Below are positions 13,222 to 25,850 of a DNA stretch of 44,293 nucleotides, piece by piece. Below the pieces are notes generated by a model that was not told where the DNA came from, made no database searches, and was given only the letters and a program-made list of their open reading frames with translations. Every line of letters begins with the position of its first letter. Position 1 is the stretch's first letter. The position numbers were made by a program, and so were the translations under genes. The DNA is from Escherichia phage vB_EcoP-UTI89UKE2. The stretch is taken from the sequence record MZ234049.1; one strand, 5' to 3'.

Positions 13222-14162
13222 TAGATGCTGATATGTTACCCTACATCGTAGGTTATACAATCAGTGACATGACTTATTTACGAGCCACAACTCGTGTTAA
13301 GTCAGGACAAGTCCCATCAATCAAAGATACGCCTGAGTGTAAGCAAGCGTGTGACCGTGTGAACTCCTTGCTTAACTCTTGGGTGTATGCAGCAGAATGT
13401 GATGCAGCTAAGTTATTCATGACGAAATCAGAAGCTAACTTCCGTGTCCGCCTAGCATTCACCAAGCCTTATAAAGGTCAACGTAAGACCGAGAAGCCTC
13501 CATTCTTCTATGAATTGCGAGAGCATCTCTTAGAGGTTCACGGTGCAATCTTGGCAGATGGAGAGGAAGCAGACGACCTCATGAGTATCGCACAATGGGA
13601 CAGCCACCGCCGCTTCCAGCAAGATACAGGTAACGAGTTCCCTATCGGTAGTCCAGAGCATAAAGCATTCTCTGATACTTGCATCGTTTCCTTGGATAAG
13701 GATTTGATGATTGTTCCCGGTTGGCATCTACAGCCGGGTCAAGAGAAGAAGTGGGTAGAGCCTATGGGCTGGCTTGAGTTACGCCGCAAAGCTAATGGTC
13801 AAGTCAAAGACCTAAAAGGTGCTGGCCTTATGTTCCATTATGCACAGATGATTATCGGTGATGATATTGATAACTATGCTGGCATACCTGGTCGTGGTGC
13901 TAAATATGCCTATGATCTTCTCAAAGGTTGTAAGACAGAGAAAGAATTGTACATGGCAGTGCTTGGTGCTTACAAAGCTAAGTTCGGTCATGGACAGGTT
14001 AAGATTAAGAATTACCGAGGTGGTTATCGGGTGGGCAAAGCCTTTGACCTTATGCTTGAATGCGGTCGCTTAGCTCACATGGCTAGGTTCAAAGGTGATA
14101 TATGGAGAGCCGATAAGAACCCAATCTTGTGGGGAGATGATGCGGAATGGTTAGCAAATTAA
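13134..14162 (+). CDS. 5'-3' exonuclease (T7 gp6 / FEN-like)
   Basis: Motifs IALIDADMLPY, GEEADDLMS, SLDKDLMIVPG and GDDIDNYAGIPGRG; RBS AGGAG at 13121-13125. Confidence 0.85.
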   Translation: MRPNFDFGATVSEDNNLILWPTEGNRIALIDADMLPYIVGYTISDMTYLRATTRVKSGQVPSIKDTPECKQACDRVNSLLNSWVYAAECDAAKLFMTKSEANFRVRLAFTKPYKGQRKTEKPPFFYELREHLLEVHGAILADGEEADDLMSIAQWDSHRRFQQDTGNEFPIGSPEHKAFSDTCIVSLDKDLMIVPGWHLQPGQEKKWVEPMGWLELRRKANGQVKDLKGAGLMFHYAQMIIGDDIDNYAGIPGRGAKYAYDLLKGCKTEKELYMAVLGAYKAKFGHGQVKIKNYRGGYRVGKAFDLMLECGRLAHMARFKGDIWRADKNPILWGDDAEWLAN

Positions 14163-14560
14163 AAGCATCGGAGGTGGCAGCTTATAAGAAGGAATTGCTA
14201 GATAAGCAAGGATGGAAATGCCCTCTGTGTGGTGGCAGTCTCAAAGCTGTCACACCTGTAAACCGTGTACTTGACCATGACCATGAGACAGGATTCTGCC
14301 GTGCTGTTGTATGCCGAGGTTGCAATGGTGCGGAAGGGAAGATTAAGGGTGTTATCTCTGGTTATGGCAAGGCGGGTAATAACCGTTACTTCCAGCTTCA
14401 ATGGTTAGAGAGATTGTATGAATACTGGAAGTTACATAGTACGCCTCAGACAGATAAGTTATATCACAAACATCAAACGGAGGCAGAGAAGCGCGAGGCT
14501 AAGAACCGTAAGGCACGCCTTGCTTATGCAAGAAAGAAGAAGGAGGTTAAAGTTGGGTAA
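14147..14560 (+). CDS. endonuclease VII-like Holliday junction resolvase
   Basis: CPLCGG ... DHDHETG ... CRGCNGAEGK, the zinc-binding and catalytic signature of the T4 endo VII family. Confidence 0.8.
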   Translation: MVSKLKASEVAAYKKELLDKQGWKCPLCGGSLKAVTPVNRVLDHDHETGFCRAVVCRGCNGAEGKIKGVISGYGKAGNNRYFQLQWLERLYEYWKLHSTPQTDKLYHKHQTEAEKREAKNRKARLAYARKKKEVKVG

Positions 14561-15560
14561 GCTTCGCAGCTTGTACAAAGACTCCGAGGTACTTGATGCA
14601 ATCGAGCAAGCTACCGACGAGAAAGGTAATGTTAACTACAACGAGATGGCACGGGTATTATCGTGTCACCCTGTGGGTAAGAAGATTACCCGCCAGTTGG
14701 CTCGATACTGGCATGGTCAATTCAAGAAGACCAAGAAGAATGGTGATTACTACCAGACTCTTCTGCAAGAGGATAAGCGTATCAAAGAAGAGCGTAAGCT
14801 CAGGACTCCTGACCGCTACGAGGATTTGGCTATTGTACCACTGCCTGACTCGCCTCATCGAAGTGTACTGGTAATCCCTGACACTCATGCACCTTACGAG
14901 CACCCAGATATCTTAGAGTTTCTGGCAGCGGTGGCAGCACGTTACCGTCCAGACACTGTAGTTCATCTGGGGGATGAGGCAGATAAACATGCCTTATCGT
15001 TCCACGATTCAGACCCCAATCTGGATAGTGCTGGCATGGAGTTAGAGAAGGCCCGTGTCTTTATGCATAAATTACACAAGATGTTTCCTGTGATGCGCCT
15101 GTGTCATTCTAATCACGGCTCTATGCACTTCCGTAAGGCAAGCGCTAAGGGTATCCCTGTGCAATACTTGCGTACCTATCGAGAAGTCTTCTTTCCGCAT
15201 GGGGGTGGCGACCAGTGGGATTGGCAGCATACACACGTTCTTGAGTTGCCGAATGGTGAACAGGTTGCATTTAAGCATCAACCAGCAGGCTCAGTCTTAG
15301 CAGATGCAGCGCATGAGCGTATGAACCTTGTGTGTGGTCACTTGCATGGTAAGATGTCTGTGGAGTACGCACGTAATACACATGAACAGTATTGGGCTGT
15401 GCAGGGCGGCTGTTTGATTGATGAGTCATCTCGTGCATTTGCCTATGGTCGTGAGTCCAAATACAAGCCAGCATTAGGTTGTGTGGTTATTCTGGAGGGT
15501 GTGCCGCACATTGTCCCGATGCAGACCAATAGTGACAATCGCTGGATTGGTAAGATTTAG
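14553..15560 (+). CDS. calcineurin-like metallophosphoesterase (start uncertain; TTG at 14553 after RBS AGGAGG)
   Basis: Motifs VIPDTHAPYEHPD, HLGDEADKH, CHSNHG and CGHLHG. The track start at 14418 lies inside the endonuclease gene and is unlikely. Confidence 0.75.
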   Translation: MGKLRSLYKDSEVLDAIEQATDEKGNVNYNEMARVLSCHPVGKKITRQLARYWHGQFKKTKKNGDYYQTLLQEDKRIKEERKLRTPDRYEDLAIVPLPDSPHRSVLVIPDTHAPYEHPDILEFLAAVAARYRPDTVVHLGDEADKHALSFHDSDPNLDSAGMELEKARVFMHKLHKMFPVMRLCHSNHGSMHFRKASAKGIPVQYLRTYREVFFPHGGGDQWDWQHTHVLELPNGEQVAFKHQPAGSVLADAAHERMNLVCGHLHGKMSVEYARNTHEQYWAVQGGCLIDESSRAFAYGRESKYKPALGCVVILEGVPHIVPMQTNSDNRWIGKI

Positions 15561-15600
15561 TTGACACTATAGAACAAAGGGTAGGTATTAGCTTACCCTT
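15555..15600 (+). promoter_or_regulatory. phage RNAP promoter (ATTTAGTTGACACTATAGAAC) followed by a leader hairpin (AAGGGTA-loop-TACCCTT)
   Basis: Promoter variant closest to the classical SP6 consensus ATTTAGGTGACACTATAGAAG; the hairpin begins at +1. Confidence 0.7.
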
Positions 15601-16217: not shown

Positions 16218-17161
16218 ATATATTCCAATTCCTAGGTCTTCCAGAAGACCACCGCAATCACCCATTCATGCTGGTGAAACATCGCGGTGAAGTACCTGAG
16301 AAGAAATTAACTTTTCCATGTTATGCACAGGTAAAACGAGATGGTATATTTAGTGCTGTGGTTGTTCGCAACGATGGTGTCGTTGGTATCTTTGGACGCA
16401 CTGGAAAGAAACTGGCTAACACGGAAACCTTGGAAGAATCTTATTCAGCTTTCCCTACTGGCATTTATCTCGGTGAGTTGCAATCTATGGCTATTGATGT
16501 CTACCTTGAAGCACTTTCTGGAGTAGTTAACCCTAACCGCACTGAGCCACTGGATTTCATAGGCCAGCAGATTAAAGACAACCTGTATATTGACTTCTTC
16601 GATATGTTAACTATTAAGGCATTCCATGATGGATTCACTGATGTTTCTTATCTCAAACGTTACGATGCTTTACATCGTCGCATCGGCGCTAATCTTAGCG
16701 GGTACAACGCTATCCTTCCTATTACTCCTTGCCATAATGAGCGAGAAGTTGAAGCGTTTGCGCAAGAGCAAATAGACGCAGGCCGAGAGGGTGCTGTGTT
16801 TAAACTGGACTGTGATTATGAAGCAGGCCACAAAGGTTATCGTCAGACTAAAGAAGTCCGTAAGGTAACTTATGACCTTACTTGTATTGGCTTTGAAGAA
16901 GGCAAAGGTAAGTACAAAGGTAAGGTAGCTAACCTCATTTTCAAATGGAAAGGAGGCAAGACAATCAAAGCTATGTTAGGTAAAGGGTGGACTCATGCAG
17001 ATGCAGAACAGATGTTCCACGATATTAAACATGGTGGACGATTGAATGTCATTGGTAAAATCTTTGAAGTAAAAGGTCTTCAGGATTCAAGCAAGGGCAA
17101 CATTCGTCTGCCCAAAGCGGGAGAATTAAGACATGACAAAGATGAACCAGATTTCTTTTGA
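16214..17161 (+). CDS. ATP-dependent DNA ligase
   Basis: Adenylation motif VKRDG near the N-terminus; size and position typical of T7-group ligases. Confidence 0.85.
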   Translation: MNIFQFLGLPEDHRNHPFMLVKHRGEVPEKKLTFPCYAQVKRDGIFSAVVVRNDGVVGIFGRTGKKLANTETLEESYSAFPTGIYLGELQSMAIDVYLEALSGVVNPNRTEPLDFIGQQIKDNLYIDFFDMLTIKAFHDGFTDVSYLKRYDALHRRIGANLSGYNAILPITPCHNEREVEAFAQEQIDAGREGAVFKLDCDYEAGHKGYRQTKEVRKVTYDLTCIGFEEGKGKYKGKVANLIFKWKGGKTIKAMLGKGWTHADAEQMFHDIKHGGRLNVIGKIFEVKGLQDSSKGNIRLPKAGELRHDKDEPDFF

Positions 17162-17348
17162 TAGCATGAAGGCAACTCGTGCAGTTGAGGTAGCAGAAGC
17201 TATCTTTGAAACTTTATCCTGTGGCATGGAATTGCCGTATACTTTACTGGCTGATGCAGAAGAGCTTGGTCTTTCTGTAGAAGCTATCCAAGAGAAGGTT
17301 GAAGAACTCTATGGTACAGACGAAGAAGAAACCGACGATTTCATTTGA
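17133..17348 (+). CDS. hypothetical acidic protein (71 aa) ending TDEEETDDFI
   Basis: ORF overlapping the ligase 3' end. Confidence 0.45.
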   Translation: MTKMNQISFDSMKATRAVEVAEAIFETLSCGMELPYTLLADAEELGLSVEAIQEKVEELYGTDEEETDDFI

Positions 17349-17352
17349 GGGT

Positions 17353-17481
17353 ATGGAGATGCTTGAGATGATTCTCAAGCCTTCTTCTCCGAAGGTGACT
17401 AAGACTCACGAAGAATTAATCGTAGATGAAGTGAAGCGTTACATCATGGATTGTGTCAGAGCACAACTGGTGGTCCAATGA
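17353..17481 (+). CDS. small ORF (42 aa)
   Basis: RBS GAGGG then ATG at 17353; its stop overlaps the next ATG. Confidence 0.35.
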   Translation: MEMLEMILKPSSPKVTKTHEELIVDEVKRYIMDCVRAQLVVQ

Positions 17482-17939
17482 TACGTCCAGCTTCCTTCCT
17501 AGATATTCCTGAGATTATAAACCTTGGGAATAAATATGTGGAAGAGGAAGTCAAGGTTGTAGCCCACCACTCAGCCTCATGGAATGCAGAACAAAGTGCA
17601 CATAACCTTTGTGCATCTCTTAGTAGAGAAGATTTATTCCTATGGGTGGCTGTAGATGAAGGGCAGATTGTAGGGTTCCTGTGGGCTGGCTATCACGAGT
17701 TGGCCCCTTGGACACCTGTAAGGGTTGCCTCTGACATTCTCTTTTACATTATACCAGAGAAGCGAGGGACACTACTCGGTATGCGTCTTATCAAGGCTCT
17801 TAAACAATGGGCTAATGAAAATGAATGCTCTGAGGTTCGCCTGTCTATCGCCTCTGGTATTAATGAAGAACGTGTCGGACGTATGTATAAGCGACTTGGC
17901 TTTGAACCGTTTGGCACTGTGTACAACCTGAAGTTCTAA
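17478..17939 (+). CDS. GNAT-family N-acetyltransferase
   Basis: N-terminus MIRPASFLDIPEI, acetyl-CoA binding motif IIPEKRGTLLGMRLI, C-terminal YKRLGFEPFG. Confidence 0.6.
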   Translation: MIRPASFLDIPEIINLGNKYVEEEVKVVAHHSASWNAEQSAHNLCASLSREDLFLWVAVDEGQIVGFLWAGYHELAPWTPVRVASDILFYIIPEKRGTLLGMRLIKALKQWANENECSEVRLSIASGINEERVGRMYKRLGFEPFGTVYNLKF

Positions 17940-17948
17940 GGAGATAAC

Positions 17949-18158
17949 ATGGGTGTTGTAAAGAAAGCATTTAAGGCTATCGGTCTTGCTCAAGATGCAC
18001 CACGTATTGAAGCCAAAGTCCCAGCACAGCAGCTTGAGCGTAAGCCTGAGACTGAAGCTGAAGATATTCAAATTGGTGCAGGTGGCGATGATGCGACTGC
18101 ATCTGCAAAAGGTAAGCGCGGCCTTGTCCGTCCGGTAGCTTCTAGCTTGAAGGTGTAA
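17949..18158 (+). CDS. hypothetical protein (69 aa)
   Basis: RBS AAGGAG then ATG at 17949. Confidence 0.5.
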   Translation: MGVVKKAFKAIGLAQDAPRIEAKVPAQQLERKPETEAEDIQIGAGGDDATASAKGKRGLVRPVASSLKV

Positions 18159-18159
18159 T

Positions 18160-19710
18160 ATGAAACAGAGCACAGATTTGGAGTATGGAGGTAAGCGGTC
18201 TAAGATACCTAAGCTATGGGAGAAGTTCTCCACTAAACGTAGCTCTTTCCTTGATAGGGCGAAGCATTACTCCAAATTAACCTTGCCCTATCTGATGAAT
18301 GACAAAGGTGATAACGAGACTTCGCAGAATGGATGGCAAGGTGTAGGTGCTCAGGCAACTAATCATCTAGCCAACAAGCTAGCGCAAGTACTATTCCCTG
18401 CACAGCGTTCCTTCTTCCGTGTAGACTTAACTGCACAAGGTGAGAAGGTTCTTAATCAGCGTGGCCTGAAGAAGACAGAGCTAGCTACCATCTTCGCTCA
18501 AGTGGAAACACGGGCAATGAAAGAGTTAGAGCAACGTCAATTCCGGCCTGCTGTAGTGGAAGCATTCAAGCATCTTATTGTTGCTGGTAGCTGTATGCTA
18601 TACAAGCCGAGCAAAGGTGCAATCAGTGCTATCCCAATGCATCACTATGTAGTTAACCGTGATACCAATGGCGACCTGTTAGACATTATCTTACTGCAAG
18701 AGAAAGCCTTACGCACCTTTGACCCAGCTACACGTGCTGTAGTAGAGGTTGGCCTGAAAGGTAAGAAGTGCAAGGAAGATGACAGCGTTAAGCTGTACAC
18801 ACATGCTAAGTATCTTGGTGATGGATTTTGGGAACTCAAGCAATCTGCTGATGATATCCCTGTGGGTAAGGTGAGTAAAATCAAATCAGAAAAGCTACCT
18901 TTCATCCCATTAACTTGGAAGCGAAGCTATGGTGAGGATTGGGGTCGCCCTCTTGCAGAGGATTACTCCGGTGATTTATTCGTTATCCAATTCTTATCTG
19001 AAGCGGTTGCCCGTGGTGCTGCGCTGATGGCAGATATCAAGTACCTGATTCGTCCGGGTGCTCAAACTGATGTTGACCACTTTGTTAACTCTGGCACTGG
19101 TGAGGTTGTCACTGGTGTAGAAGAAGACATCCATATTGTACAGTTAGGTAAGTACGCAGACCTCACACCTATTAGTGCGGTTCTAGAGGTATACACTCGC
19201 CGTATCGGTGTTGTCTTCATGATGGAGACAATGACACGCCGTGACGCCGAACGTGTTACTGCTGTAGAAATCCAGCGAGATGCGTTAGAGATTGAGCAGA
19301 ACATGGGTGGTGTATACTCTCTCTTTGCTACTACTATGCAATCGCCAGTAGCGATGTGGGGTCTGCTGGAGGCAGGGGAGTCCTTCACTAGTGACTTAGT
19401 GGACCCTGTGATTATCACAGGTATTGAAGCTTTAGGACGCATGGCTGAGTTGGATAAACTGGCTAACTTTGCTCAGTATATGTCACTGCCATTACAATGG
19501 CCTGAGCCTGTCCTAGCTGCTGTGAAATGGCCTGACTATATGGATTGGGTGCGTGGTCAAATCTCTGCTGAACTGCCGTTCCTTAAATCGGCTGAAGAGA
19601 TGGCACAAGAACAGGAAGCACAGATGCAAGCACAGCAAGCACAGATGCTTGAAGAAGGTGTGGCTAAGGCCGTGCCGGGTGTAATTCAACAAGAACTTAA
19701 GGAGGCGTAA
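18160..19710 (+). CDS. portal (head-tail connector) protein, T7 gp8-like
   Basis: 516 aa; NGWQGVGAQATNHLANKLAQVLFP resembles the T7 gp8 N-terminal region; gene order. Confidence 0.88.
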   Translation: MKQSTDLEYGGKRSKIPKLWEKFSTKRSSFLDRAKHYSKLTLPYLMNDKGDNETSQNGWQGVGAQATNHLANKLAQVLFPAQRSFFRVDLTAQGEKVLNQRGLKKTELATIFAQVETRAMKELEQRQFRPAVVEAFKHLIVAGSCMLYKPSKGAISAIPMHHYVVNRDTNGDLLDIILLQEKALRTFDPATRAVVEVGLKGKKCKEDDSVKLYTHAKYLGDGFWELKQSADDIPVGKVSKIKSEKLPFIPLTWKRSYGEDWGRPLAEDYSGDLFVIQFLSEAVARGAALMADIKYLIRPGAQTDVDHFVNSGTGEVVTGVEEDIHIVQLGKYADLTPISAVLEVYTRRIGVVFMMETMTRRDAERVTAVEIQRDALEIEQNMGGVYSLFATTMQSPVAMWGLLEAGESFTSDLVDPVIITGIEALGRMAELDKLANFAQYMSLPLQWPEPVLAAVKWPDYMDWVRGQISAELPFLKSAEEMAQEQEAQMQAQQAQMLEEGVAKAVPGVIQQELKEA

Positions 19711-20635: not shown

Positions 20636-20658
20636 ATTTACTGGACACTATAGAAGGG
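20636..20658 (+). promoter_or_regulatory. phage RNAP promoter (ATTTACTGGACACTATAGAAGGG) for the major capsid gene
   Basis: Exact consensus 48 nt upstream of the capsid ATG. Confidence 0.85.
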
Positions 20659-22702: not shown

Positions 22703-25104
22703 TGGAAGTACAAGGTTCATTAGGTAGACAAATCCAAGGCATTAGCCAGCAGCCGCCAGCGGTACGCTTGGATGGTCAGTGCACAGCCATGATTAATATG
22801 ATACCTGATGTAGTGAATGGTACTCAATCACGCATGGGTACAACTCATATTGCAAAGATACTTGATGCGGGGACTGATGACATGGCTACTCATCATTATC
22901 GCAGAGGTGATGGTGATGAAGAGTATTTCTTCACGTTGAAGAAAGGACAAGTTCCTGAGATATTTGATAAGTATGGGCGCAAATGTAATGTGACTTCACA
23001 AGATGCACCTATGGCTTACTTGGCTGAGGTGATAAACCCAAGAGAAGATGTACAATTCATGACGATAGCTGATGTTACTTTCATGCTTAATCGTAGGAAA
23101 GTAGTTAAAGCTAGTAACAGGAAGTCACCTAAAGTTGGAAACAAAGCCATTGTGTTTTGTGCGTATGGTCAATATGGTACATCTTATTCCATTGTAATTA
23201 ATGGGACCAACGCTGCTAGTTTTAAAACACCGGATGGTGGAAGTGCAGACCATGTTGAACAAATTCGAACTGAACGTATCACTTCTGAATTATACTCTAA
23301 GTTGCAGCAATGGAGCGGTGTGAGTGACTATGAAATACAAAGAGACGGTACTAGTATATTTATCGAGAGACGGGATGGTGCTAGCTTTACAATAACAACC
23401 ACCGATGGTGCAAAAGGTAAGGACTTAGTGGCTATCAAGAATAAAGTTAGCTCTACTGACCTACTCCCGTCTCGTGCGCCTGCGGGTTATAAAGTGCAAG
23501 TGTGGCCTACTGGCAGCAAACCTGAGTCTCGTTACTGGCTGCAAGCTGAGCCTAAAGAGGGAAACCTTGTATCTTGGAAAGAAACAATAGCTGCCGATGT
23601 ATTACTTGGGTTTGATAAAGGCACAATGCCTTATATCATTGAACGTACAGGTATCGTAGACGGCATAGCTCAATTCAAGATAAGACAAGGCGATTGGGAA
23701 GATCGTAAAGTAGGGGATGACTTGACTAACCCTATGCCCTCTTTTATTGATGAGGAAGTACCCCAGACAATAGGTGGAATGTTCATGGTGCAGAACCGCC
23801 TATGCTTTACAGCAGGTGAAGCGGTTATTGCTTCTCGTACATCATACTTCTTCGATTTCTTTCGTTATACGGTTATCTCTGCATTGGCAACTGACCCATT
23901 TGATATTTTCTCAGATGCTAGTGAAGTCTACCAGCTAAAACATGCAGTGACCTTAGATGGCGCTACCGTGTTGTTCTCTGATAAGTCACAATTCATACTG
24001 CCAGGCGATAAGCCTTTAGAGAAGTCAAATGCATTGCTTAAGCCTGTTACAACATTTGAAGTGAACAATAAAGTGAAGCCAGTAGTAACTGGTGAATCGG
24101 TAATGTTTGCCACTAATGATGGTTCTTACTCTGGTGTACGAGAGTTCTATACAGACTCTTATAGTGACACTAAGAAGGCACAAGCAATCACAAGTCATGT
24201 GAATAAACTCATCGAAGGTAACATTACCAACATGGCAGCAAGCACCAATGTCAACAGGTTACTTGTCACTACCGATAAGTATCGTAACATAATCTACTGC
24301 TACGATTGGTTATGGCAAGGAACAGACCGTGTACAATCAGCATGGCATGTGTGGAAGTGGCCTATAGGTACAAAGGTGCGAGGTATGTTTTATTCTGGCG
24401 AATTACTTTACCTGCTCCTTGAGAGAGGCAATGGTGTCTATCTGGAGAAGACGGATATGGGTGATGCATTAACCTATGGTTTAAATGATCGCATCCGAAT
24501 GGATAGACAGGCAGAGTTAATCTTCCAGCATTTCGAAGCAGAAGATGAATGGGTATCTGAACCGCTACCTTGGGTTCCTACTAACCCAGAACTTTTAGAT
24601 TGCATCTTAATCGAGGGTTGGGATTCATATATTGGTGGTTCTTTCCTATTCAAATACAACCCCGGTGATAACACCTTGTCTACAACCTTTGATATGCATG
24701 ATGATAGCCACGTAAAAGCGAAGGTTATTGTTGGTCAGATTTACCCTCAAGAGTTTGAACCAACACCTGTAGTTATCAGAGATAGGCAAGACCGTGTATC
24801 CTATATTGATGTACCTGTTGTGGGATTAGTTCACCTTAATCTTGATATGTATCCTGATTTCTCCGTGGAGGTTAAGAATGTGAAGAGTGGTAAAGTACGC
24901 AGGGTGCTAGCGTCAAACCGTATAGGTGGTGCTCTCAACAATACAGTAGGTTATGTTGAACCAAGAGAAGGTGTCTTCAGATTCCCACTGAGAGCTAAGA
25001 GTACGGATGCTGTTTATCGTATTATTGTAGAATCACCTCACACATTCCAGCTTCGTGATATTGAGTGGGAAGGGAGCTACAATCCAACCAAAAGGAGGGT
25101 CTAA
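22702..25104 (+). CDS. tail tubular protein B (gp12-like)
   Basis: N-terminal IQGISQQPP matches the T7 gp12 GISQQPD motif; ATG overlaps the upstream stop (TAATG). Confidence 0.88.
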   Translation: MEVQGSLGRQIQGISQQPPAVRLDGQCTAMINMIPDVVNGTQSRMGTTHIAKILDAGTDDMATHHYRRGDGDEEYFFTLKKGQVPEIFDKYGRKCNVTSQDAPMAYLAEVINPREDVQFMTIADVTFMLNRRKVVKASNRKSPKVGNKAIVFCAYGQYGTSYSIVINGTNAASFKTPDGGSADHVEQIRTERITSELYSKLQQWSGVSDYEIQRDGTSIFIERRDGASFTITTTDGAKGKDLVAIKNKVSSTDLLPSRAPAGYKVQVWPTGSKPESRYWLQAEPKEGNLVSWKETIAADVLLGFDKGTMPYIIERTGIVDGIAQFKIRQGDWEDRKVGDDLTNPMPSFIDEEVPQTIGGMFMVQNRLCFTAGEAVIASRTSYFFDFFRYTVISALATDPFDIFSDASEVYQLKHAVTLDGATVLFSDKSQFILPGDKPLEKSNALLKPVTTFEVNNKVKPVVTGESVMFATNDGSYSGVREFYTDSYSDTKKAQAITSHVNKLIEGNITNMAASTNVNRLLVTTDKYRNIIYCYDWLWQGTDRVQSAWHVWKWPIGTKVRGMFYSGELLYLLLERGNGVYLEKTDMGDALTYGLNDRIRMDRQAELIFQHFEAEDEWVSEPLPWVPTNPELLDCILIEGWDSYIGGSFLFKYNPGDNTLSTTFDMHDDSHVKAKVIVGQIYPQEFEPTPVVIRDRQDRVSYIDVPVVGLVHLNLDMYPDFSVEVKNVKSGKVRRVLASNRIGGALNNTVGYVEPREGVFRFPLRAKSTDAVYRIIVESPHTFQLRDIEWEGSYNPTKRRV

Positions 25105-25850
25105 TGGCTATAGGTTCAGCCGTTATGGCTGGTATGTCTTCTATTGGTAGTATGTTTGCAGGTAGCGGTGCAGCGGCCGCTGCTGGGGGTACTGCCGCAG
25201 CAGCAGGAGGGACAGCCGCCGCAGGTGGCGGAGGTTTGCTTGGCTCCCTTGGTAGTTTCTTAGGAGGTTCTTCTGCTGGCTTCTCTAATGCAGGACTGCT
25301 TAGTGCAGGTATGCAAGGTCTTGGGCTTCTAGGCAATCTTTTTGGTGGAAGTGATGAAGCCAAAGCTATGAAGAAAGCTCAGGAGGAGCAATGGCGGCAG
25401 CAGTTAATTGCTACACAAGAAGCATATAAGACAGTAGCAGATGCAGAACGCTCTGCTGCTAAACAGTATCATGCGGATGCAATAAGCAATCAGGCTTCAC
25501 TGCTACAGCAAAGAGCGCAGGTTGCACTACTTGCAGGTGCAACTGGCACTGGTGGTAACTCTGTATCTTCTATGCTGAATGACTTAGCAGCAGAGGGCGG
25601 GAGGAACCAGAGTACAATTATTGATAACTATGAGAATCAGAAGATTAACTTCACCAATCAGCTTAAGTCTATCCAGCGAGGTGGACAGATGCAGATGCGT
25701 GAGTTTAAGAAGCCTTCTGCCGTGAGCACCTTGGTGCAAGGTATACCGAGTCTGGCATCTGCCTATGTAACAGGTAGTAAGTCCGGCATGGCTTTAGGTA
25801 AAGCTTTAACTGATTCTCGTACATATTCATCTGGAACAAGAGGTATTTAA
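25104..25850 (+). CDS. internal virion protein (Gly/Ala-rich N-terminus)
   Basis: ATG overlaps the gp12 stop; low-complexity GGTAAAAGG repeats. Confidence 0.65.
   Translation: MAIGSAVMAGMSSIGSMFAGSGAAAAAGGTAAAAGGTAAAGGGGLLGSLGSFLGGSSAGFSNAGLLSAGMQGLGLLGNLFGGSDEAKAMKKAQEEQWRQQLIATQEAYKTVADAERSAAKQYHADAISNQASLLQQRAQVALLAGATGTGGNSVSSMLNDLAAEGGRNQSTIIDNYENQKINFTNQLKSIQRGGQMQMREFKKPSAVSTLVQGIPSLASAYVTGSKSGMALGKALTDSRTYSSGTRGI

Follow-up and report, generated by a model that had tools for sequence, protein, structure and literature searches.

The Closest Described Systems

The only experimentally studied gene of the genomic slot considered here encodes Rac, the RNA polymerase alpha cleavage protein of phiKMV-like phages, which is gp28 of Pseudomonas phage LUZ19 and a predicted GNAT protein (PMC7552054). 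When Rac was expressed alone, RNA polymerase alpha was cleaved at Q244/E245, transcription fell by 76% and lysine acetylation rose, while mutation of the acetyl-coenzyme A (acetyl-CoA) pocket abolished the cleavage of alpha (PMC7552054). A different line of work, that of Hardies et al. (2016), described a non-structural gene of the acetyltransferase family in the so-called 'IVP-A' slot of podoviruses, and reported that gp13 of phage T7, a protein which morphogenesis requires and the virion does not retain, matches acetyltransferases by HHpred (PMC4819975). The present work compares with these systems a gene found at positions 17478-17939 of a stretch of 44,293 nucleotides from Escherichia phage vB_EcoP-UTI89UKE2 (sequence record MZ234049.1); the whole of this stretch is referred to here as the window. 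The original prediction for this gene, made from the letters of the DNA and without database searches, was that it encodes a phage GNAT acetyltransferase, lying where the replication genes meet the structural ones, which might modify a host protein, for takeover or for defence evasion, or else a phage protein.

A GNAT-Family Gene at the Boundary between Replication and Structural Genes

The open reading frame (ORF) at 17478-17939 is a real GNAT-family gene, and both its nature and its place at the replication/structural boundary were borne out. It consists of 153 codons plus the stop, its ATG shares the letters ATGA with the TGA of the preceding ORF of 42 amino acids (aa), the string GGTGG is found 7-11 nt 5' of the start, and the MIRPA N-terminus is common to its relatives. 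The protein passed the gathering cut-offs of three Pfam models, namely Acetyltransf_1 (39.8 bits, cut-off 20.7), Acetyltransf_7 (37.9 bits, cut-off 27) and Acetyltransf_10 (26.7 bits, cut-off 23.6), and it matched phrog_1249, a family labelled 'acetyltransferase', at 3.4e-54. Structure prediction, which had been named as a way of checking the assignment, yielded an AlphaFold2 model (32 homologues) with a predicted local distance difference test (pLDDT) value of 88.5 and a complete GNAT topology: strands (b) and helices (a) follow one another in the canonical order b1-a1-a2-b2-b3-b4-a3-b5-a4-b6-b7, and every element, a4 included, is present. The two strings that had suggested the fold, PEKRGTLLG (residues 93-101) and YKRLGF (residues 137-142), are both real, and correspond to motif A and to the end of motif B (Table 1).

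The original prediction had also considered that the residues binding acetyl-CoA might turn out to be lost on careful alignment; they are largely kept, with one departure from the canonical motif. Conservation was derived from 143 aligned sequences, that is, the window protein and 142 family representatives that are 22-54% identical to it. The best-kept positions of the alignment are R3, D9, E23, G66, P93, R96, G97, W111, G141 and G146, and they fall in the b1/a1 'IR.A...D' element, in the pyrophosphate loop between b4 and a3, and where motif B ends. Among them, R96 occurs in 98% of the sequences, G97 in 88%, G141 in 97% and E23 in 90%, while position 101 is occupied by G or A. Motif A of the window protein reads R96-G97-T-L-L-G101, and the loop of the family as a whole, R-G-x-x-x-G/A, departs from the textbook Q/R-x-x-G-x-G/A in that the canonical central Gly is a Leu (L99) in the window protein and is variable across the family. 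Judged from the alignment, this is a variant form of the GNAT motif rather than its loss. In addition, the ratio of non-synonymous to synonymous substitution rates (dN/dS) of the gene, computed against its SP6, CrRp3 and Klebsiella phage relatives, was 0.05-0.16, similar to that of the adjacent ligase, which indicates strong purifying selection. The protein is thus probably a working acetyl-CoA-dependent transferase. As a separate observation, the counterparts in Gajwadongvirus (ECBP5, L005:3483-3944; MR4, L011:2483-2944; RCIP0089, L012:2483-2944) lack two residues of the acetyl-CoA loop (FRG--YG), and this branch may therefore have a different cofactor site.

Distribution and Existing Annotation of the Family

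The window region is 100% identical to the record of Escherichia phage vB_EcoP-UTI89UKE3 (Vectrevirus, SP6/K1-5 group, Molineuxvirinae), and record MZ234050 labels the gene (17479-17940) as 'hypothetical protein'. The gene call is nevertheless not new, because the same gene is already annotated as an acetyltransferase in K1-5, in SP6 (gene 28), in Era103 and in dozens of other phages. SP6 gene 28 is 76.5% identical to the window protein, and the K1-5 acetyltransferase (YP_654128) is 85% identical, or about 97% outside an insertion peculiar to K1-5; both genes have the same position and neighbours as the one in the window. Concerning that insertion, the K1-5 copy (L001:4479-5006) is 175 aa long and contains, after residue 41, 22 additional residues that repeat HHSASWNAEQSA. 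They form a tandem duplication that includes a short stretch out of frame, located in the flexible a1-a2 loop, and could represent either genuine variation or an artefact of early sequencing.

A tblastn search found the protein in 248 phage records, with 232 matches covering at least 80% of its length, and a profile search of 1.84 billion representative proteins retrieved 1243 relatives at E <= 1e-10, nearly all of the best 150 listed being about 150 aa long. Ten relatives sampled from that search came from metagenomes or sequencing-run assemblies, on contigs of up to 41 kb, and none of the ten from a bacterial genome. As far as these searches go, phrog_1249 is therefore a large family whose members all come from phages or from contigs of phage size. 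None of the named bacterial GNAT families in NCBIfam (RimI TIGR01575, ArsN1 NF040503/4, AAC(6'), the YpeA-type PRK03624) was matched above its curated cut-off, the best scores being 24.5-28.6 bits against cut-offs of 86-210 bits. Four metagenomic relatives (P0077, P0081, P0086 and P0101) are unusually long, at 318-385 aa; they match the family profile in two stretches and contain GNAT Pfam domains only, which may reflect tandem GNAT domains. No fusion partner informative on function was found in the longer family members.

Gene Order around the GNAT Gene

The most informative evidence on this gene is its order with respect to its neighbours. The succession of ligase, small ORFs, GNAT, gp7.3-like gene, portal and scaffold is kept in K1-5, SP6, CrRp3, a Klebsiella phage and Era103 (Molineuxvirinae), in Vibrio phage AS51 and Pseudomonas phage Njord (Colwellvirinae), in ECBP5, MR4 and RCIP0089 (Gajwadongvirus) and in Aeromonas phage Tola, and the shorter order of GNAT, small virion protein and portal is a recurrent arrangement in Autographiviridae. 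A gp7.3-like gene as the immediate 3' neighbour was identified in K1-5, SP6, ECBP5, Era103, Njord, MR4, RCIP0089 and Tola. The equivalent slot is held by a GNAT of the Rac type in Krylovirinae, Waewaevirus and Ghunavirus, including Pantoea phage LIMEzero and the T7-like gh-1 group, and in this last group the Rac-type gene lies between the gp6.7-like and gp7.3 genes.

Relation to Rac

Like the protein of the window, Rac is a small GNAT-fold protein whose gene stands directly 5' of the genes for a small virion protein and the portal (gp28-gp29-gp30 in the Autographiviridae genome of LUZ19), an arrangement that the window reproduces (17478-17939, 17949-18158 and 18160-19710). The b4-a3 segment that binds acetyl-CoA, which is needed by Rac, is conserved in the window protein. 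A comparison of the SP6-type and Rac-type families by hhalign gave 86.7% (E 4.4e-6), and the use of a broader SP6-type alignment raised this to 95.9% (E 5e-9) over 86 columns, from a2 to b5; moreover, six of eight Rac-type proteins matched phrog_1249. The Rac family used here was assembled from tblastn hits, the word-indexed protein search with Rac having given a single near-identical protein. There are also differences between both groups. The region of motif B conserved in the family of the window (SIASGINEE...LGF) is absent from the Rac-type proteins, the 5' neighbour is the phage RNA polymerase gene in phiKMV phages and the ligase gene in the window, BLASTP between the small proteins encoded 3' of the window gene and of Rac returned nothing, and the effect of Rac is confined to a single genus and a single host. 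On the basis of these comparisons, the relation between the window protein and Rac is one of superfamily-level homology and shared position, and family membership is not shown by them.

T7 Gene 7, gp13 and the IVP-A Slot

In T7 the corresponding place, between genes 6.7 and 7.3, is taken by gene 7 (NC_001604, 19130-19531; L004:2131-2532), a gene annotated as 'host range' whose product has 133 aa and belongs to phrog_2746. As with the GNAT gene of the window, gene 7.3 follows directly, and then, past the inserted HNH gene 7.7, comes the portal gene 8. Seven of the eight Rac-type proteins matched phrog_2746 (best E 3e-8), BLASTP aligned T7 gp7 with the gh-1 protein at E 2e-4, and hhalign of the gp7 family against the Rac type gave 47.9%; against the SP6-type family of the window the value was 4%, which is not significant. 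A model of the T7 gp7 family had a pLDDT of 90.6, and its 50 best matches among solved structures all had the GNAT fold (E 8e-6 to 1e-4, TM-score 0.5-0.7), comprising acetyltransferases and two entries of GNAT-type toxins. T7 gene 7 is therefore predicted to have a GNAT-like fold although, unlike the GNAT of the window, gp7 lacks helix a4 and the R/Q-x-x-G-x-G/A motif. A literature search found no paper describing T7 gp7 as GNAT-like. The statement of the original prediction that T7 has no GNAT gene thus holds at the level of Pfam, where gp7, the sole T7 protein checked, had no match, and does not hold in a wider sense, given the predicted fold of gp7 and the acetyltransferase matches reported for gp13.

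The family of the window appears in a second setting as well. Yersinia phage YeP6 (L013:2501-2947) and Alcaligenes phage Piluca (L023:3983-4447) encode true members of phrog_1249 (1.5e-44 and 5.4e-41, respectively); the YeP6 member is 31% identical to the window protein (E 4e-23) and that of Piluca matches the family profile with 97.2%. In both phages the GNAT gene is preceded by the gene of a tubular-tail-B-type protein (phrog_376) and followed by that of a small internal virion protein (phrog_418). This is the IVP-A slot, and 3' of the phrog_418 gene lie epsilon15 gp15-/gp16-like proteins in Piluca and a large unannotated ORF in YeP6. The window gene resembles the IVP-A genes (T7 gp13, P22 gp14) in that all of them specify small non-structural proteins encoded beside small ejected or internal virion proteins; in their own genomes T7 gp13 and P22 gp14 hold the IVP-A slot, while the GNAT of the window lies elsewhere. 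The window phage has no gene in the gp13 slot: the interval 25065-25105 contains no ORF between the gp12-like tail tube gene, which ends at 25104, and the gene of the gp14-like internal virion protein. The matches listed in a tblastn search with T7 gp13 were all T7-type phages, with genomes of about 37-41 kb, and none was SP6-like. It should be noted that phage FRS has both a Rac-type GNAT and gp13. At the level of profiles, T7 gp13 (phrog_308) and P22 gp14 (phrog_651) showed no significant similarity to the SP6-type, Rac-type or gp7 families, in comparisons made with small alignments: hhalign gave 1.2% for gp13 against alignment A2, 7.3% for the gp13 family against alignment A6 (in the first 26 columns only) and 0.7% for P22 gp14 against A2. 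The link with the IVP-A slot is thus supported by position and by a single statement in the literature.

Transcription Unit and Neighbouring Genes

The window contains 11 CACTATAG sites on the + strand, and 13 matches over both strands compared with 2.0 expected. The sites of the + strand are embedded in the 23-nt consensus ATTTACTGGACACTATAGAAGAG, which corresponds to an SP6-type phage promoter (Table 1). The promoter at 15555 is among the more divergent of these sites (AGTTGACACTATAGAACAA). Between 15600 and 20600 there is no promoter-like site, the best position weight matrix score in that interval being 3.7, compared with 27-40 for real sites. From the promoters at 15555 and 20636, with none between them, it can be deduced that the GNAT gene is transcribed by the phage RNA polymerase in a single unit, together with the genes for a nucleotide kinase and the ligase, the two small ORFs, and the gp7.3-like, portal and scaffold genes. 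A scan for sigma-70 promoters and terminators around the gene gave no sites above chance. Within the 42-aa ORF, a hairpin of 8 bp with a T-rich run after it (17361-17380) has the pattern of a terminator, a pattern whose count in the region is within chance. The 69-aa protein encoded directly 3' matches phrog_1320 (1.9e-11) and phrog_9033 (1.1e-12). DNA modification of the Mom type, considered because of the nearby nucleotide-metabolism genes, was rejected, as no supporting evidence was found.

Table 1. Position of the GNAT gene, its motifs, its neighbours and the phage promoters in the window.
Feature	Position	Strand	Remark
Phage-RNA-polymerase promoter ATTTAGTTGACACTATAGAACAA	15555..15577	+	Opens the GNAT unit
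Small conserved ORF, 71 aa, phrog_5860	17133..17348	+	Between ligase and GNAT
Small conserved ORF, 42 aa, phrog_6507	17353..17481	+	Stop overlaps GNAT start
GNAT-family N-acetyltransferase gene, phrog_1249, 153 aa	17478..17939	+	Counterpart of SP6 gene 28 and K1-5 'acetyltransferase'
Motif A (acetyl-CoA pyrophosphate loop), PEKRGTLLG, residues 93-101	17754..17780	+	b4-a3 loop
End of motif B, YKRLGF, residues 137-142	17886..17903	+	a4 into b6
gp7.3-like small virion ('host range and adsorption') protein gene, 69 aa	17949..18158	+	Directly 3' of GNAT
Portal (head-tail connector) gene	18160..19710	+	In the GNAT transcription unit
Next phage promoter ATTTACTGGACACTATAGAAGGG	20636..20658	+	5' of the major capsid gene; ends the GNAT unit
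Strong phage promoters, consensus ATTTACTGGACACTATAGAAGAG	3708, 6009, 6857, 10385, 11154, 12387, 15555, 20636, 33412, 35517, 37863	+	
Two weaker promoter variants	3892, 43959		

Further upstream, the window contains an intact endonuclease VII homologue at 14147-14557, which is 98.5% identical to the K1-5 protein in one tblastn segment. The matching GenBank record carries no annotation for it, and the region is covered there by a 'phosphoesterase' with an extended N-terminus (record 14419-15561) and by a short hypothetical ORF.

Possible Roles of the GNAT Protein

The reading tentatively placed in front, at clearly less than an even chance, is the acetylation of host proteins in the manner of Rac. 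According to it, the protein would be a catalytically competent, non-structural, acetyl-CoA-dependent N-acetyltransferase of the phage-only family phrog_1249, made from mid-infection onward as a result of transcription from the 15555 promoter by the phage RNA polymerase. The binding site for acetyl-CoA would run along strand b4 and into the loop between b4 and a3 (Y90, I91, R96-G97...G101), and an amino group of a protein would receive the acetyl group, with E23, in helix a1, as a candidate catalytic or substrate-binding residue. The targets would be host proteins, and the enzyme would represent the SP6/K1-5-group counterpart of LUZ19 Rac, which disables host transcription. Thus we infer that the protein is an active enzyme, that its substrate is a protein and that its target belongs to the host, and the last is favoured because Rac, the only gene of the slot with experiments behind it, acts in this way, and because the cofactor site is kept. 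Further support is drawn from results shown above, namely the GNAT identity and fold, the purifying selection, the spread of the family among phages, the transcription unit, the common gene order and the remote homology to Rac. Several observations weigh against this proposal. The LKA1 homologue of Rac, encoded in the same slot, leaves alpha intact (PMC7552054), and Rac has no effect in P. putida. BLASTP produced no alignment between the window protein and Rac, and their PHROG families differ (phrog_1249 and phrog_3986, the latter being matched by the window protein with an E value of only 0.022, compared with the 3.4e-54 given above). The D-x-H-V-G sequence found between b3 and b4, invariant in the eight Rac-type proteins, is absent from the SP6-type alignment (...APW..xVA.D), and the hhalign match to Rac covers only the generic GNAT core, which may be common to any two GNATs. 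Furthermore, phrog_1249 is conserved in phages of many host genera, the GNAT genes of YeP6 and Piluca lie inside an operon of tail and internal proteins, which points to a role linked to the virion, small-molecule acetyltransferases are the best matches, all of them weak, both among solved structures and in NCBIfam, and the literature search found no experiment on any member of phrog_1249.

A role linked to the virion, which is rather unlikely if taken by itself, comes out as about equally likely as host-protein acetylation. Under this proposal, the enzyme would act on, or chaperone, small virion proteins of the phage itself, ejected or internal ones, for example the lysine-rich gp7.3-like neighbour or the gp14-type internal protein, and it would be needed for fully infective particles, as are T7 gp13 and P22 gp14, two assembly proteins of a non-structural kind. 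It is consistent with the fact that, in both of its genomic settings, phrog_1249 is encoded in the virion block directly 5' of a small ejected or internal virion protein, the second setting (YeP6, Piluca) being the IVP-A slot, for which a gene of the acetyltransferase family has been described (PMC4819975). The lack of a gp13-slot ORF in the window, the absence of SP6-like phages among the listed gp13 matches, the presence in the GNAT slot of T7 gene 7, with its 'host range' label and predicted GNAT-like fold, and the co-transcription of the GNAT gene with portal and scaffold point in the same direction. However, hhalign detected no sequence link between phrog_1249 and gp13 (7.3%) or P22 gp14 (0.7%), the coexistence of a Rac-type GNAT and gp13 in phage FRS argues against a simple substitution, and gp7 and gp13, the putative relatives engaged in assembly, have degenerate cofactor motifs, whereas the motif of phrog_1249 is kept. 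To our knowledge, acetylation of virion proteins has also not been reported for SP6-like phages. A broader and more speculative version, held to be unlikely, envisages an old lineage of podovirus GNAT-fold proteins tied to small proteins that are both packaged and ejected together with the DNA, which would comprise the SP6-type gene, the members of its family that YeP6 and Piluca carry in the IVP-A slot, Rac of the phiKMV phages and the degenerate T7 gene 7. The GNAT of the window would be the catalytically intact member of this lineage, acetylating lysine-rich virion proteins or their handlers so that infective particles are produced.

The remaining accounts are less probable still. That the enzyme acetylates a metabolite or a toxic compound, for example a polyamine, an analogue of an amino acid or an inhibitor of the aminoglycoside type, is improbable, even if its best sequence matches among solved structures are the Brucella GNAT 4j3g (2.5e-6), PA4866, phosphinothricin/MSO acetyltransferases and the diamine acetyltransferases SSAT1/2, its NCBIfam matches are to ArsN1 and AAC(6'), and Foldseek retrieved polyamine and PAT/Bar/ArsN enzymes among others. 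W69, W78 and W111, which also speak for this option, are invariant in close relatives, and in the wider family only W111 reaches at least 80%. These matches are nonetheless weak (15-25% identity, and 25-29 bits against NCBIfam cut-offs of 124-210) and acetyltransferases of protein N-termini and of histones (Naa60, Ard1, Hpa2) are scattered among them; in addition, a metabolic enzyme has no obvious reason to occupy a fixed place beside virion genes in two genome architectures. The fold searches likewise did not narrow the substrate class, as protein and small-molecule acetyltransferases alternated at similar scores. The cellular GNATs (PA4866, Bar, ArsN, SSAT/SpeG, RimI, Naa60, Hpa2) have the same fold and cofactor motifs at 15-25% identity, with no prominent subfamily, and therefore no substrate can be transferred from them. 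Defence evasion, one of the purposes contemplated in the original prediction, turned out to be its least supported role, and the acetylation and disabling of a host immune protein must be regarded as very improbable: there is a precedent in the literature, that of AcrVA5 acting on Cas12a (cited in PMC7552054), but this is a core gene of fixed position, under strong purifying selection and present in phages of many host genera, whereas anti-defence genes are typically variable and accessory. PADLOC gave only a 12-bit match, which is not meaningful, and neither AcrVA5 nor a GNAT toxin (TacT/AtaT) was found among the PDB sequence matches at E <= 1. There is no toxin-antitoxin context either, since the neighbours of the gene are conserved phage ORFs and virion genes, with no antitoxin.

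The least probable of these accounts, with hardly any weight assigned to it, is a GNAT-fold protein that has a structural or regulatory role and transfers no acetyl group. The replacement of the central Gly of R-x-x-G-x-G by L99, the two-residue loop deletion of the Gajwadongvirus relatives and the apparent loss of the motif in T7 gp7, which occupies the same slot, could be taken in its favor, but R96, G97, the G/A at position 101 and the residues of motif B are strongly conserved, all the secondary-structure elements are present, including a4, and the Pfam scores lie well above threshold. Finally, a small share of the confidence is reserved for the case that none of the proposals presented here is right. 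Host-protein acetylation of the Rac kind is thus retained as the leading, though tentative, interpretation.

Implications

Although correct, the finding is an ordinary one, its evolutionary twist is a modest one, and its added value lies in the comparative frame and in the fold prediction for T7 gene 7. The Vectrevirus phages specific for K1 are candidates for therapy, and the GNAT is, in these phages, a conserved core enzyme without an assigned function. The comparative frame turns the label 'acetyltransferase' into two testable hypotheses, namely a Rac-like acetylation of host proteins and a role in the assembly of ejected virion proteins. It also brings out that a single slot, located 5' of gp7.3 and the portal, would be held by GNAT-fold proteins in phages of the SP6, phiKMV, gh-1 and T7 types, and that the family of the window occurs, in addition, in the IVP-A slot of other podoviruses. 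For T7, a fold can now be suggested for its long-unexplained 'host range' gene 7. If the proposal of an old virion-associated lineage were true, the acetylation of virion proteins would constitute a so far unrecognised maturation step in podoviruses.

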